The notes below the pieces were generated by a model, which was not told where the DNA came from, did not search any database, and saw only the letters and a list, made by a program, of their open reading frames with translations. Both the position numbers and the translations under genes were made by a program. Of a stretch of DNA of 37,209 bases, positions 10-5,802 are shown piece by piece; within the stretch, counting starts at the first letter, position 1; every line of letters begins with the position of its first letter. Source of the DNA: Patescibacteria group bacterium (lineage in GTDB: Bacteria > Patescibacteriota > Minisyncoccia > Phycocordibacterales > JBBUBG01); assembly GCA_040384765.1 (NCBI GenBank), contig JAZKIQ010000010.1, positions 43,208 through 80,416 of the forward strand. Reading direction: 5' to 3'.

Positions 10-501
10 TCATACACCAAACTGTTTACCGAGAATATGGTGCGGATGTTCTCGATTGAACAGCTCCTCGCTGCGCTCGAGGAGGTACACTCGCTCGATC
101 CCCGCTTCGAGGATAGCACTCCAGCAGTCCTTGCAGGCCCACCAGTGACCCCAGAGGTAGAGGCTTGCCCCATCGGGGTCGTTTCCGCTCTCTCGTGCCG
201 CACGCAGTGCAGACGGCTCTGCGTGATAGGCAGGTGAGCAGCCTTCGCACAACTCGTACCCTTCACCCGTCTTGCAGCCAAGACGCTTGCGTTCGCACCC
301 CTTCTCCTCGTGGAATGCACTGTAGTTTGCTCCCACCCCAAGCACGGAGCCATCGCGCGATACAACCACCGCACCGGTCTTCACCAGAGGGTCAGTCGAG
401 CGCCGAGCCGCCTCCCGAGCAAGCCCCATAAAGCGATCGTCGCTTGGGACGTACAGAAACGTACGCCCTGGGGGGATGAACGGATATGGAATGGATGCCA
501 T
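10..501 (-). CDS. Zn-dependent cytidine/dCMP deaminase-family protein (163 aa)
   Basis: HAE motif, TGAVVV strand and WWACKDC in place of PCxxC, plus an extra Cys cluster (CERKRLGC...LCEGC). The start is reset to the ATG at 501 (MASIPYP) because the longer ORF overlaps thyA antisense. Confidence 0.85.
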   Translation of the reverse strand: MASIPYPFIPPGRTFLYVPSDDRFMGLAREAARRSTDPLVKTGAVVVSRDGSVLGVGANYSAFHEEKGCERKRLGCKTGEGYELCEGCSPAYHAEPSALRAARESGNDPDGASLYLWGHWWACKDCWSAILEAGIERVYLLERSEELFNREHPHHILGKQFGV

Positions 502-567: not shown

Positions 568-1404
568 ATGGCACATTTTGACCTCCTCTACCAAAACCTC
601 CTGCGTGACATAGAAATGCACGGCATACAGGATGTCAACAAGCGCACCGGACACGAAACGAAGGCAATTCCGGGAGCGCAGTTCTCCATCGATCTCGAAA
701 AAGAGGGCTTCCCGCTTCTTACACTCCGCAAGATCCCTATTCAAGCGTTTATCGCAGAGCAAACCTGGTTTATCTCCGGCTCTCGCAAGCCCGCAGACCT
801 TCTGCGCGACTTCACCAAGATATGGGACGTATTCACGAACCCCGGTGACGTAGTGACCGTCGCATACGGGTATCGCTGGCGCCGCCACTTTGGGCGCGAC
901 CAGCTCAAGCTTCTCATCGATCTTTTGAAAAACGATCAGAGCTCGCGCCACGGAGTGATCGTCACCTGGGACCCAAGCTCAGATGGCCTCGGAGGTCCTG
1001 CGCGCAAAAATGTCCCCTGCCCTTTTACCTTTACCGTCAACATTATTGGCGGGCGGCTTCATCTGCACAACATTATCCGCTCGAACGATGTCATACTTGG
1101 GTTGCCGTTTGATGCAGCAGGGTTTGCATTTCTTGCACTGGTGCTCGCACAGAAGCTGGGTGTGCGCCCAGGTATCTACACACACTCGATCTCCAACGCA
1201 CACGTGTACGACAACCACTACTTCGCAATTCCTGAGCTCCTGCGCCGCCCGGCAGACCACCCAACAATCCACCTCCACCTTCCCGATAAAAGTTTTGAGC
1301 GGGCAGAGAAAAAAGATCCAGACCTTATCCGGGAAGTAGCCGCCCACCTTGAGGCGCAGTACCACCCCGGAGAACCCATCAAAGGCCTCAAGATTGCTTT
1401 GTAA
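568..1404 (+). CDS. thyA: Thymidylate synthase-family protein with Asn->Asp specificity change (possible dCMP methyltransferase)
   Basis: Motifs EQTWF, YGYRWR, SSRH, catalytic PC (Cys151), RSND..LGLPFD and HVY. Start taken at ATG 568 (MAHFD), downstream of TATACT at 544-549. Confidence 0.9.
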   Translation: MAHFDLLYQNLLRDIEMHGIQDVNKRTGHETKAIPGAQFSIDLEKEGFPLLTLRKIPIQAFIAEQTWFISGSRKPADLLRDFTKIWDVFTNPGDVVTVAYGYRWRRHFGRDQLKLLIDLLKNDQSSRHGVIVTWDPSSDGLGGPARKNVPCPFTFTVNIIGGRLHLHNIIRSNDVILGLPFDAAGFAFLALVLAQKLGVRPGIYTHSISNAHVYDNHYFAIPELLRRPADHPTIHLHLPDKSFERAEKKDPDLIREVAAHLEAQYHPGEPIKGLKIAL

Positions 1405-1424: not shown

Positions 1425-2057
1425 ATGGCCATAATCGTACGCAGCGAAATAGTGGAGAGAATAAAAAGCGGAGATATGGTGTTCAACCCACCACTCGATA
1501 TCTTCCAGCTTCAGGAGCATGCAATAGATCTGCGCATGGGATTTACCTTCATGGTTCCAAAGCGATGGCACCTTACAAAAGCCGGCCGCGAGTCGCTCGA
1601 CGCCACCCACTTCGACAAGCCAAATAGTGAATATTTCGATATCGTGGAGCTCGAGGAGGGGCAAACGTTCGACCTCCTTCCCCAGGAGTATATTCTCGTA
1701 TCGACTCTTGAATCGATCAAAGTGCCTCGCGACCTGATGGCGGTGATGTATCCACGCTCTTCGACCAACCGCAAAGGCCTCTCGGTCGACCTTACCGGCA
1801 TCATCGACTCTGGATACGAAGGCCAGCTCACCATTCCGATCCGCAACAACACTCAGTCCCAAGTGGTGAAGCTCCACCCTGGCGAGCGCCTCTGCCAGAT
1901 CGTGTTTGAAAAGCTCACGATGTCTGTCGACGCACGCAAGAGCAAATACCACCGACGCGATATTATCGACGGCGTGAAGCGTGAAAAGCGCACCGAGAGC
2001 AAGCTCATTCTTGATGGTGCCATTCGGAAGCTAAAGAGCGATCACAAGATCAAATAA
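1425..2057 (+). CDS. dcd: dCTP deaminase/trimeric dUTPase-fold protein lacking the deaminase Glu
   Basis: Motifs IDLRMG, STLESIKVP, RSS..R.GL, GIIDSGYEG and GERLCQIVF. Pro138 occupies the position of E. coli Dcd Glu138. Confidence 0.85.
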   Translation: MAIIVRSEIVERIKSGDMVFNPPLDIFQLQEHAIDLRMGFTFMVPKRWHLTKAGRESLDATHFDKPNSEYFDIVELEEGQTFDLLPQEYILVSTLESIKVPRDLMAVMYPRSSTNRKGLSVDLTGIIDSGYEGQLTIPIRNNTQSQVVKLHPGERLCQIVFEKLTMSVDARKSKYHRRDIIDGVKREKRTESKLILDGAIRKLKSDHKIK

Positions 2058-2527
2058 TGGCAGAGATTATACTTATCGCTGCCATCGGAAAAAAAACGCG
2101 CGCTATCGGACGCGAGGGAAAGTTGTTGTGGAAAATCCCCGAAGATCTCAAGCGCTTCAAGGTGCTTACGCTCGGCTACCCGATCATAATGGGGAGAAAG
2201 ACTTTTGATTCTATTGGAAAGGCACTGCCTGGCCGAAAAAATTTCGTTATTTCGCGAAATCCCGACTTCGCACATCTGGATATTGAAAAAGTGTCGAGCC
2301 TCGACGAAGCGCTGCTTCTCGCAGAAGAATCAGCCCCGGAAAAGATATTTGTGATCGGCGGAGGAGAGATATACAAGCAAGCACTCACCCGCGCAGACCG
2401 CCTTATGCTTACTCTCGTAGACTCTGACGAGGAAGGCGACACGTTCTTCCCCCCATATCCCGAGTTCTCAAACGTCGTCTCAAAGGAAGATCACGCCGGG
2501 TTTTCGTTTGTGGAGCTCACGCGTTAA
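2057..2527 (+). CDS. folA: Dihydrofolate reductase
   Basis: Motifs LLWKIPEDLKRFK, IIMGRKTFDSIG, LPGR, VIGGGEIY and GDTFFP. Translationally coupled to the upstream gene (TAATG). Confidence 0.95.
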   Translation: MAEIILIAAIGKKTRAIGREGKLLWKIPEDLKRFKVLTLGYPIIMGRKTFDSIGKALPGRKNFVISRNPDFAHLDIEKVSSLDEALLLAEESAPEKIFVIGGGEIYKQALTRADRLMLTLVDSDEEGDTFFPPYPEFSNVVSKEDHAGFSFVELTR

Positions 2528-2536
2528 TCTATCTCA

Positions 2537-3235
2537 ATGCCCTATCTCATCCTCAAAGCACGCGATACGATCGCAGAAAACACCACACAGTTCACCTTTG
2601 AGACTCCGCCCGACTTTTCTTTTAAAGCAGGTCAAGCCGTGGATCTAACACTCGAGAATATGTCGTACACCGACGACGCGGGTGCCACTCGCACCTTCTC
2701 GATCTCAAGCTCACCAAATCATAAAGGCGAGATCACCATCGCCACACGTAACTCAAGCTCTGCTTGGAAACGCACGATGTTCGAGGCACCCATGGGTCAA
2801 AAGATCTCGTACACAAACCCAACCGGACAGTTTAACCTCCCCCGCAAACCGGAGGAGCACCTTATCTTTGTCGCGGGCGGTATTGGCATAACACCGTTTA
2901 TGTCGCTCGTCCGCTACGCAACGGAAGAGAAACGTTTCGACAAGATCACGCTTATCTACTCAAATAAAAGCGAGGCGACCGCCGTATACCTTGCCGAGCT
3001 CCGTGCGCTTGCCGCAGAAAATCCCAACCTCACCCTTATCGAAAACTACGGTTCGCTCACATCTGAGATCATCACAAAAGCCGCGCAAGCTGACCCACTC
3101 CCCAAGCTCTACTATATTGCAGGTCCGATCGGCATGGTTGGGATGGCGCACAAAACGGTCCAAGAAACAGGTGTCGATGATAATGATATCCTCATTGAGG
3201 AGTTCGCCGGATACGACCCTTCCGTACTCCACTAG
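2537..3235 (+). CDS. Ferredoxin-NADP reductase-like FAD/NAD(P) oxidoreductase
   Basis: Motifs FKAGQ, RTFSISS, AGGIGITP, YIAGP (Ala for the usual Cys) and C-terminal EEF. Confidence 0.85.
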   Translation: MPYLILKARDTIAENTTQFTFETPPDFSFKAGQAVDLTLENMSYTDDAGATRTFSISSSPNHKGEITIATRNSSSAWKRTMFEAPMGQKISYTNPTGQFNLPRKPEEHLIFVAGGIGITPFMSLVRYATEEKRFDKITLIYSNKSEATAVYLAELRALAAENPNLTLIENYGSLTSEIITKAAQADPLPKLYYIAGPIGMVGMAHKTVQETGVDDNDILIEEFAGYDPSVLH

Positions 3236-3288: not shown

Positions 3289-4047
3289 ATGCAGATACTC
3301 TCAGATGCTCATCATCTTGAAACGATCGTGCGCCTCCAGGCGTGGCGATTGCTCGAGAAGGCGGAGAAGCTGAAGACGACGATGAAAAAGATTGGCGCCC
3401 AGGCGTTCGTCACTGACTGGGATGACACCGTCGCATATGGCGTCGTTGCCTGGTTTGAGAAGGCAATTGTGGATCTTGGCCAGGCTGACTACGACAAGCA
3501 TCTCGACGGCTGGGGCATGTACCAGAAGTACAAGGTGTTCAACAACGTGAAGTACTGGGACCCGGTCAGATTTGACCGCTGGGCCCAGAACACCGTCGAC
3601 CAGAACGACCTCGATCCGCACGTAGCGGCTATTCCAGGCAGTATCGAAGCTCTCTGGAAAATACCGAGCGAGACCCACCTGTGGTTCGCCGGATACCTCT
3701 CGGCACGAAGGGAACGAAACGAGGAGAGCATGCGGCGCATGCTCGAGCGTCTCGGTGCACCTCCCGGAGAGCTGTTCTTTCCGCCAAACCACGCAACGTA
3801 CGCAGACACGCACAAGATAAAGTGCGAGCTGCTCCGGTACATGTACCCCGAAGTACAGCTTCATATTGACGATCACCCGCTGATCATCAAAGAAGCTTCG
3901 GTACACTTCCCCGGACGTCTCTGCCACTTCAACGCCGACGCTGAGGGAGAGTGCCCCCAGGGCAAGATCATCAGTGCAAGCGGCCGCGAGTGGAGCTACC
4001 TCCGCAAGCGCCTGGCACACCACTACCCGCGCAAGCGCGTAGCGTAG
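3289..4047 (+). CDS. HAD-superfamily hydrolase, 5'(3')-deoxyribonucleotidase-like
   Basis: DWDDT motif I, LSAR motif II and IDD motif IV. Strong SD AAGGAGGT at 3276-3283. Confidence 0.65.
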   Translation: MQILSDAHHLETIVRLQAWRLLEKAEKLKTTMKKIGAQAFVTDWDDTVAYGVVAWFEKAIVDLGQADYDKHLDGWGMYQKYKVFNNVKYWDPVRFDRWAQNTVDQNDLDPHVAAIPGSIEALWKIPSETHLWFAGYLSARRERNEESMRRMLERLGAPPGELFFPPNHATYADTHKIKCELLRYMYPEVQLHIDDHPLIIKEASVHFPGRLCHFNADAEGECPQGKIISASGREWSYLRKRLAHHYPRKRVA

Positions 4048-4076: not shown

Positions 4077-4114
4077 AAAAGCCGCGATCCCTTCGGGATC
4101 GCGGCTCTTTTTTT
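4077..4114. terminator. Bidirectional intrinsic terminator
   Basis: AAAA-GCCGCGATCC-cttcg-GGATCGCGGC followed by a T-run, between convergent genes. Confidence 0.8.
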
Positions 4115-5460: not shown

Positions 5461-5802
5461 CTACCTGTTGTCCCCCGAGCCGTGGAGCACCCCCCGAGCC
5501 TTACGGGAAGCCAGCTTTTCGATATTCATCTGGGCCACCTCATCGAGGGTCGAGCCAAGCTCATGCGCACAGGCTGAGACGTACCAGAGCACATCCCCCA
5601 CCTCAGCAAGCAGAGCTTTTCTATCCTCTGGAGTAAACGGCTGTTTCGGGTCGTACGAGATCTCTCGAATAATCTTTTTGAGCTTGTCAGCCACTTCGCC
5701 CGACTCCCCCGCAAGACCGAGTACTGCATACATAAGGTTGTGCCCTCGATCCTTATAGAGCGCGGTCCCATCAGCCGCATCGTCATATTCGCGTAATGTC
5801 AT
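5461..5802 (-). CDS. MazG-like nucleoside triphosphate pyrophosphohydrolase
   Basis: Motifs LGLAGESGEVADKLKK and EVGDVLWY, ending GSGDNR. Confidence 0.88.
   Translation of the reverse strand: MTLREYDDAADGTALYKDRGHNLMYAVLGLAGESGEVADKLKKIIREISYDPKQPFTPEDRKALLAEVGDVLWYVSACAHELGSTLDEVAQMNIEKLASRKARGVLHGSGDNR

Follow-up and report, generated by a model that had tools for sequence, protein, structure and literature searches.

In our study, a gene of the dCTP deaminase (Dcd) type was analyzed in a 37,209-nt stretch of DNA from a Patescibacteria group bacterium; this whole stretch is called the window, all positions are window positions, and the genome carrying it is G000. The protein was found to belong to the Dcd branch of the dUTPase superfamily by sequence, fold and tree. 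It contained a proline (Pro138) at the position of the catalytic glutamate (Glu138) of E. coli Dcd, whereas the motifs for hydrolysis were kept. The loss of the glutamate was found to be conserved across a clade of such proteins (Pro type, as against the ordinary Glu type), and the gene was located in a conserved module with a ThyA homolog that contains an aspartate at the position of E. coli Asn177 (Asp type, as against Asn type). We propose, with a probability of about 0.5, that the Pro-type protein converts dCTP to dCMP and pyrophosphate (PPi) and feeds a route from dCMP through 5-methyl-dCMP to dTMP.

Active site, fold and spread of the Pro-type protein

The features of the gene were as follows.

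1425..2057, forward strand: Dcd-fold gene, Pro-type 'dCTP deaminase' homolog, 210 amino acids (open reading frame listing and translation)
1755..1838, forward strand: residues 111-138 (motif 2 PRSS, loop, motif 3 GIIDSGYEGQL, Pro138), RSSTNRKGLSVDLTGIIDSGYEGQLTIP
1788..1790, forward strand: codon gac of Asp122
1836..1838, forward strand: codon ccg of Pro138, equivalent to E. coli Dcd Glu138
1881..1898, forward strand: motif 4 GERLCQ, residues 153-158 (alignment with E. coli Dut and Dcd)
1941..2054, forward strand: clade-specific C-terminal tail SKYH...E..L..G.I..LK (alignments of Pro-type versus ordinary Dcds)

The original prediction, made from the letters of the window, had given this peptide and the proline and aspartate codons, and all three were confirmed by translation of the open reading frame 1425..2057. 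Translation truly begins with the ATG at 1425. In the stored annotation, P0002 (193 amino acids), the gene begins at Met18 and window 1425-1475 is left out; this call is probably too short because residues 1-17 are conserved among homologs.

The active site was read in an alignment of the real E. coli K-12 Dcd and Dut (NC_000913) with 35 Pro-type and 96 Glu-type relatives, which makes 97 Glu-type sequences including E. coli Dcd, all containing the glutamate by construction of that set. Pro138 was aligned with Dcd Glu138 and Dut Ser100, Asp128 of motif 3 with Dcd Asp128 and Dut Asp90, Asp122 with Dcd His121 and Ile126 with Dcd Arg126. The same placement of the proline was found in HMMER alignments to the solved Dcds 4xjc, 2qlp and 2qxx. 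The three correspondences proposed by eye (Glu138 to Pro, His121 to Asp and Arg126 to Ile) were therefore correct. As judged from these alignments, however, the change from glutamate to proline is the only diagnostic one among them. The positions of His121 and Arg126 vary in ordinary Dcds (H/E/Q and F/W/Y/K, respectively) and neither was flagged as separating the Pro type from the Glu type; for this variability the two changes, which had been taken as informative, were dropped. Between the two sets (35 Pro-type and 97 Glu-type sequences), three core positions were discriminating, namely Gly to Pro110 (Gly109 of Dcd), Phe/Trp to Tyr131 and Glu to Pro138, and the equivalents in E. coli Dut were Pro70, Tyr93 and Ser100, respectively.

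In dUTPases, catalysis falls to the aspartate of motif 3, and motif 5 is exclusive to these enzymes (available text of PMC4827122). The Pro-type protein contained Dut motifs 1-4: D35 was aligned with Dut D11 (column as aligned), PRSS with P70-R71-S72, GIIDSGYEGQL with G87..L97, which upholds the dUTPase motif-3-like GIID..Y.G noticed originally, and GERLCQ with G114..Q119. Motif 5 was absent in the alignment with E. coli Dut, and the ordinary Dcd tail KYxxQxGPTxS was replaced by the clade-specific tail. Motif 4 matched GERIAQ of E. coli Dut in type, whereas monofunctional E. coli Dcd contains GMLIGA; its glutamine was also found in the bifunctional enzymes of M. tuberculosis and B. halodurans (HMMER alignments). 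The residues of hydrolysis kept in the alignments of relatives were R111, S112, R116, D128, G153, R155 and Q158. When set against a bifunctional DCD-DUT (EC 3.5.4.30), the protein retained the hydrolysis residues D128 and Q158, and the deaminase glutamate was gone.

Ser112 and Arg116, equivalent to Dcd Ser111 and Arg115, which we take to be the catalytic partners of the glutamate, were invariant across the alignments. The glutamate itself was reportedly shown to be needed for deamination by Dcd in work of Johansson et al. from 2005. This report, the titles of PDB entries (E. coli Dcd E138A crystallized with intact dCTP, 1xs4; E145A/E145Q variants of the M. jannaschii enzyme, where Glu145 is the catalytic glutamate) and a Pyrococcus 'dCTP deaminase' described in excerpts of PMC5122711 as an efficient dUTPase devoid of deaminase activity together indicate that the glutamate is required for deamination. 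No substitute carboxylate was invariant in the Pro clade, as position 122 contained D/E/A/N/G and position 132 varied, and an alternative catalytic carboxylate was thereby rejected. With an invariant proline in place of the glutamate and no invariant carboxylate to stand in for it, the protein has very probably lost the ability to deaminate. It is probably a diphosphatase, with the Arg-Ser of motif 2, the aspartate of motif 3 and the Arg..Gln of motif 4 kept in dUTPase-like form. Both halves of the original prediction, deaminase-dead and pyrophosphatase-competent, thus stand at this strength.

The protein might be no hydrolase at all, but a nucleotide-binding regulatory subunit (dCTP/dTTP sensor) or a deaminase with another proton shuttle. 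The invariant Ser112 and Arg116, assumed partners of the glutamate, and the long, conserved C-terminal tail would suit such a role, but no alternative carboxylate is invariant and all hydrolysis residues are under strong constraint at 67-74% identity across families, which makes this explanation very improbable.

The Pfam scan gave 115.4 bits for DCD (PF22769) and 61.8 bits for dUTPase (PF00692), and no match to PF03819, the MazG/DCTPP1 family. The NCBIfam model TIGR02274 'dCTP deaminase' was passed with a score of 111.4 (cut-off 92.8), whereas every dUTPase model remained under its cut-off: TIGR00576 at 52.3 (cut-off 102.55), NF001862 at 49.3 (103) and the archaeal dUTPase model NF002598 at 45.1 (130). 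This is why the named relatives are labelled 'dCTP deaminase'. The AlphaFold2 model, built on a 16-sequence alignment, had a mean pLDDT (predicted local distance difference test) of 87.6 and a pTM (predicted template modelling score) of 0.79, and its C-terminal tail contained two short helices (189-196 and 200-206). The top Foldseek match was E. coli Dcd 1xs4 (E 1.6e-14, template modelling (TM) score 0.68/0.73, 26% identity), followed by the Dcd:dUTPases of M. tuberculosis and B. halodurans and the DCD-DUT of M. jannaschii; 'dUTPase P45' 9ln0 and the Thermococcus pacificus dUTPase 8y1w were ranked lower. By homology, the protein is a trimer with active sites between the subunits.

Of 1210 candidates from a word-indexed protein search, 1117 passed at E <= 0.001. 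Identity to the Dcd-like protein was 66-100% for the 120 matches listed, and the named sources among them were Taylorbacteria, Liptonbacteria, Paceibacterota and 'Patescibacteria group' metagenome-assembled genomes (MAGs). In an alignment of fifteen close relatives, YPRSSTNRKGLS.DLTG..D.GYEGQL..P.RNNT was invariant, as was a large part of the C-terminal tail; G153, E154, R155 and Q158 were invariant among them, and identity across families was 67-74%. When representatives at 50% identity were searched exhaustively, 5417 matches were obtained at E <= 0.001, of which just 14 reached E <= 1e-30. The motif was read in 130 of the best 150 clusters, where the nearest ~20 contained proline and the others mostly ...TLE..N. 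Two further sets were analyzed: 48 related loci from species-representative genomes (54-76% identity, all from Patescibacteria-type MAGs), and a phylum sample of 401 evenly drawn genomes, in which residues were read in every strong match (G242 in tallies only). All these genomes are MAGs, and absence means 'not found' in the assembly. Each of the 48 related loci contained the proline, as did the window, which makes 49 of the 50 rows aligned; the last row is a fragment without this column. Of 14 more distant relatives in the phylum sample, 13 contained proline and one serine. The 16-sequence alignment, which reached down to 26% identity, had invariant R37, R111, R116, G125, D128, G133, P138, N141, G153 and R155.

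The tree comprised 134 rows, i.e., 129 Dcd-family proteins and five canonical Duts as outgroup; four broken-looking rows, rows outside 150-260 amino acids and P45 were left out. In this tree, 23 Pro rows formed a single clade nested within the Glu-type Dcds, with a support of 100 in the SH-aLRT (Shimodaira-Hasegawa-like approximate likelihood ratio test). One more Pro row was placed elsewhere, single losses of the glutamate (M, A, H, K) were scattered, and the Met-type row P0265 fell outside the Pro clade. One member of the clade (L101 6545-7207, G114), located beside an Asp-type ThyA, contained serine in place of proline (YLALSVIN). Other Glu-less Dcd-like paralogs, containing Ala, Gly or Thr, were found at L114 3508-4062 (G125), L115 3356-3910 (G289), L141 3028-3588 (G194), L137 2946-3443 (G389) and L122 2343-2924 (G287). 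Several of them were devoid of the motif-3 aspartate. The paralogs had a Dcd of the Glu type or a ThyA of the Asn type as neighbour and are separate degenerations of the Dcd fold. As for a viral origin of the Pro type, viral contigs scanned with single proteins gave one weak 31% match in one scan and none in the other, and tblastn against GenBank phages gave 88 records, all below 60% identity and mostly archaeal viruses. The glutamate was retained in all four viral Dcds read (SIRV7, STSV1, HRTV-21 and PhiF1). No phage source was found in these viral contigs or GenBank phages, and this origin was rejected.

The conserved module and the pairing with Asp-type ThyA

The neighbouring features in the window were as follows.

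10..501, reverse strand: dCMP/cytidine-deaminase-family gene, 163 amino acids, with HAE and CxxC, divergent from thyA
568..1404, forward strand: thyA, ThyA homolog with LGLPFD (Asp at E. coli Asn177), SNAHVY (Asn at Asp205) and PCP for PCH
2057..2527, forward strand: folA, FolA-type dihydrofolate reductase (DHFR), whose ATG overlaps the stop codon of the Dcd-like gene
2537..3235, forward strand: FNR-like FAD/NAD-binding oxidoreductase, 9 bases past folA
3289..4047, forward strand: 252-amino-acid open reading frame with no Pfam or NCBIfam match
4080..4106: strong terminator-like hairpin, 12 pairs
5461..5802, reverse strand: MazG-family nucleotide pyrophosphohydrolase, 3.4 kb from the Dcd-like gene

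The gap between thyA and the Dcd-like gene was 20 bases. Solved thymidylate synthases contain LGVPFN and GDAHIY where the ThyA of the window contains LGLPFD and SNAHVY. The change of Asn177 to Asp turns ThyA from dUMP to dCMP methylation, as stated in the available text of PMC8670742, which cites mutagenesis papers of 1992. In the same protein, His147 was changed to Pro (PCP) and Gln165 to Ile, and the change of PCH to PCP was common to most ThyA neighbours of the Pro-type gene. As far as the sequence goes, these changes suggest a remodelled pyrimidine pocket, more than one switch.

Forty-five of the 48 related loci contained a ThyA homolog no more than 8 kb away; the others were L041 and L060, both cut by a contig end, and L052. 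A dCMP-deaminase homolog was present in 43 loci and a DHFR of the FolA or RibD_C type in 44 loci. In every readable ThyA row (46/46, from 45 loci and the window), Asn177 was replaced by Asp and Asp205 by Asn. A MazG homolog was located directly beside the Dcd-like gene in 4/48 loci, and a canonical Dut (>= 38% identity to the Dut query) near it in 13/48. Homologs of the FNR-like gene and of the open reading frame 3289-4047 were not seen in the 48 loci with the queries used.

In the phylum sample, a Pro-clade protein was found in 15 genomes (14 with Pro; G114 with Ser) and an Asp-type ThyA in 19, and both were present in 14. A contrast set was made of 24 genomes with an ordinary Dcd and ThyA within ~2.5 kb, of which 20 were read (G242, G276, G179 and G260 were omitted). 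The ThyA was of the Asn type in 20/20 and the Dcd of the Glu type in 18/20, and the remaining two loci, from one genus, contained an Ala-type protein that was also devoid of the motif-3 aspartate. Weaker Dcd matches in the phylum sample were considered as hidden Pro types and rejected, as 16/16 loci read were of the Glu type. The phylum thus shows two alternative pairings: Glu-type Dcd with Asn-type ThyA, and Pro-type Dcd with Asp-type ThyA and a zinc deaminase.

The genome G000 consists of 822,710 bases in 12 contigs and is 99.83% complete. It contained one gene of the DCD/dUTPase superfamily and one ThyA, and the Pfam profile search of G000 found no ThyX and no thymidine kinase. A weak dNK-like match was located just upstream of the window (C10:41166-41636). 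The dCMP-deaminase-family protein contained a Cys-rich insert C..C...C..C ahead of HAE, and GANY, read by eye, in place of the allosteric G(Y/W)N(A/G) of DCTDs (motif from the available text of PMC12088426); it may be regulated unlike a classical dCMP deaminase. The long open reading frame listed at 10-951 overlaps thyA, and its start is probably not the real one. Among the related genomes, G070 (the genome of L063, ~0.8 Mb) was found to contain three full-length canonical dUTPase genes in addition to the Pro-type gene.

Proposed function and alternatives

The Pro-type protein is proposed to be a Dcd-superfamily enzyme that has lost deamination and would cleave a pyrimidine dNTP at its alpha-beta phosphoanhydride bond by hydrolysis; it would amount to a bifunctional Dcd:dUTPase minus the deaminase half. 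In the proposed route, the Pro-type protein would convert dCTP and water to dCMP and PPi, and the neighbouring Asp-type ThyA would methylate dCMP to 5-methyl-dCMP with conversion of methylenetetrahydrofolate (CH2-THF) to dihydrofolate (DHF). DHF would be recycled by the adjacent DHFR, and 5-methyl-dCMP would be deaminated to dTMP by the divergently transcribed zinc deaminase. The order of thymidylate synthesis would be hydrolysis, methylation and deamination, whereas the usual order is deamination, hydrolysis and methylation. A Glu-type Dcd(:Dut) paired with an Asn-type ThyA supplies it with dU nucleotides made from dCTP, so the Pro/Asp pairing would move deamination to after methylation. Hydrolysis of dCTP to dCMP by a Glu-less enzyme would fit here because its partner, the Asp-type ThyA, would want dCMP.

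Cytosine as the substrate base is suggested by the gene context, i.e., the link with Asp-type ThyA, and a side activity on dUTP or 5-methyl-dCTP may exist. The Pro-type Dcd may still be under dTTP feedback, kept from Dcd, in a route free of dUMP. The last steps have partial parallels. Phage Asp-type ThyAs make 5-methyl-dCMP (5mdCMP) and adjoin dCMP-deaminase-family enzymes that prefer 5-methylcytosine (5mC), and the authors of that work propose that thymidine nucleotides arise by deamination of 5-methyl-dC nucleotides (both in the available text of bioRxiv 10.1101/2024.12.05.627091). DCTD deaminates 5-methyl-dCMP, according to excerpts of PMC12088426. The wider claim, that free-living cells make thymidylate without dUMP and that the Pro-type Dcd is the entry dCTP diphosphatase, derived from a bifunctional ancestor, is advanced tentatively, as somewhat less probable than even.

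Several observations weigh against the dCTP reading. No sequence feature fixes the base or excludes a plain dUTPase, so that, of the substrates originally predicted, dCTP and 5-methyl-dCTP draw support from the gene context with Asp-type ThyA only. All three discriminating core positions shift toward, or equal, the dUTPase state. The dCTP diphosphatase could instead be a MazG-family enzyme, which the window encodes and which adjoins the gene in four of the related loci. No ribonucleotide reductase of class I/II or III was found in G000 with the profiles PF02867 and PF13597, which leaves none to account for the supply of dCTP. The two partners also occur apart: G252 contained the Pro type with no ThyA match, and an Asp-type ThyA with no Dcd homolog (E <= 1e-12) was found in five genomes of family f60 that are 74-85% complete (L087-L091, in G195, G271, G172, G428 and G480, respectively). 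The link is not obligatory, as these genomes and G252 each have one partner alone. The Pro/Asp counts, moreover, are not independent because the Pro clade has one origin; they reflect in essence a single event in evolution that selection has maintained. A Dcd-family match at E <= 1e-12 was found in 0/23 genomes of f60, and in two f60 loci the Asp-type ThyA adjoined a putative nucleoside deoxyribosyltransferase-like gene and FolA.

The main alternative is a uracil-specific Dcd-like dUTPase of the Pyrococcus P45/Thermococcus type, which would convert dUTP to dUMP and PPi and keep uracil out of DNA, the link with ThyA being the usual clustering of pyrimidine genes. Archaeal proteins that are annotated as Dcd and devoid of the glutamate are proven, efficient dUTPases with no deaminase activity (excerpts of PMC5122711), and two archaeal dUTPases match the Pro type by fold and sequence, one of which, P45 9ln0, contains Met at the position of the glutamate. 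Motifs 2, 3 and 4 and the changed core residues are dUTPase-like. The Pro-type protein is the sole superfamily member in G000, and no canonical dUTPase-superfamily gene was found in 29 of the 48 related genomes either. In the phylum sample a canonical Dut was present in 3/15 Pro-clade genomes and in 146/386 others, a weak difference that leans slightly to this alternative but does not tell the readings apart. Yet the other 19 genomes among the 48 did contain a full-length canonical Dut, C-terminal end included, which in some cases belonged to the same cluster at a distance of a few genes (e.g., G030), so the Pro-type protein is not simply the only dUTPase of the cell. Supply of dUMP would make little sense with a ThyA that always contains Asp at Asn177. 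The low score against NF002598, the missing motif 5 and the origin of the Pro clade within the Glu-type Dcds, apart from the other losses of the glutamate, also argue against it. We regard this alternative as less likely than the dCTP reading. An enzyme that accepts both dCTP and dUTP, like T4 gp56, would make the two hard to separate.

In the second alternative, the protein would be mainly a 5-methyl-dCTP sanitizer, which returns 5-methyl-dCTP (5mdCTP) to 5mdCMP and keeps 5mC out of DNA while the route from 5mdCMP to dTMP operates. It draws on the same gene context as the dCTP diphosphatase reading. Dcd sites accept a 5-methyl pyrimidine, with dTTP bound in 2j4q, 2qxx and 4a6a (PDB titles), and animal DCTPP1 has such a role according to abstracts. 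Phosphorylation of 5mdCMP in these cells, however, is without support, and the nearby MazG-family gene, of the family of DCTPP1, would be the more obvious sanitizer. If deaminases of the phage type use 5mdCTP (available text of bioRxiv 10.1101/2024.12.05.627091), its destruction would be counter-productive. This alternative appears improbable.

The loss of the glutamate in a Dcd-like protein is an already known kind of change, as in the archaeal dUTPases. No prior description was found for a bacterial Pro-type clade tied to Asp-type ThyA or for a dCTP diphosphatase in the Dcd fold, subscription journals being outside the search. If the dCTP reading is true, several hundred Patescibacteria proteins are mis-annotated as 'dCTP deaminase', and the dUTPase superfamily gains a fourth activity, dCTP diphosphatase (EC 3.6.1.12). 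A cytosine-first, dUMP-free thymidylate route, so far described for 5mC phages, would then be housekeeping in a cellular lineage. It would bear on the exclusion of uracil from DNA in organisms often without a dUTPase, change the treatment of pyrimidines in metabolic models of the candidate phyla radiation (CPR), and point to new nucleotide-processing enzymes. If the Pro type is a plain dUTPase, the result is an ordinary one, a bacterial counterpart of archaeal P45.

Comparison with known systems

The 5mC module of phages of the Xp12/PaMx74 type likewise contains an Asp-type ThyA beside a dCMP-deaminase-family gene. It differs in being of phage origin and in putting 5mC into DNA; the deaminase studied there needs triphosphates, and the co-localized pyrophosphohydrolase is of the PRA-PH/MazG type, with no Dcd fold (available text of bioRxiv 10.1101/2024.12.05.627091, for all of these points).

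T4 gp56, whose record note reads 'dCTPase ... conversion of dCTP to dCMP', follows the reaction logic proposed here, in which dCTP is converted to dCMP and PPi for a ThyA-family enzyme that uses dCMP. It is, however, an all-alpha dUTPase_2 protein (PF08761) that serves phage DNA modification, whereas housekeeping dTMP synthesis is proposed for the Pro type. BLASTP of gp56 against the Pro-type protein gave E 0.055 over 11 residues, i.e., no similarity. Because the fold is unrelated, gp56 is a functional analogue only, and the originally predicted likeness to it extends to the proposed function but not to the protein itself. Conservation of Asp122 and Pro138 in homologs next to Asp-type ThyA had also been proposed as a check; it was found for the proline but not for position 122.

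Trimeric Dut (E. coli 1dud) contains PRS, G.IDS.Y.GQL and GER..Q, nearly identical in type to the Pro-type motifs. Unlike the Pro type, it is devoid of the N-terminal extension of Dcds but possesses the P-loop-like tail of motif 5. The archaeal Dcd-like dUTPases (P. furiosus P45 9ln0/9ln3 and T. pacificus 8y1w) share with the Pro type the 'dCTP deaminase' annotation and the absence of the glutamate (Met), and they are a precedent for a hydrolase in place of a deaminase. They differ in being ~155 amino acids long and in keeping PGW, and the match to 9ln0 (E 1e-11) covers residues 73-165 only. We know of no link between them and an Asp-type ThyA.

E. coli Dcd (EC 3.5.4.13; 1xs1/1xs4) is the top Foldseek match, with a TM score of 0.68-0.73 and 26% identity, and the serine, Arg115 and Asp128 are kept in the Pro type. 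The two differ at Glu138, which is Pro here, and at GMLIGA, which is GERLCQ here, so that the Pro type is annotated as a Dcd in spite of lacking the defining residue. The best matches by sequence and fold together are the bifunctional Dcd:dUTPases, which share the fold, the N-terminal extension, the absence of motif 5, the motif-3 aspartate and the motif-4 glutamine. In the Pro type, the glutamate is changed to proline, GRSS to PRSS and PGF/W to SGY, and the tail is longer and different. Both enzymes would serve thymidylate synthesis by turning a triphosphate into a monophosphate, the product being dUMP for the bifunctional Dcd:dUTPase and, as predicted here, dCMP for the Pro type.

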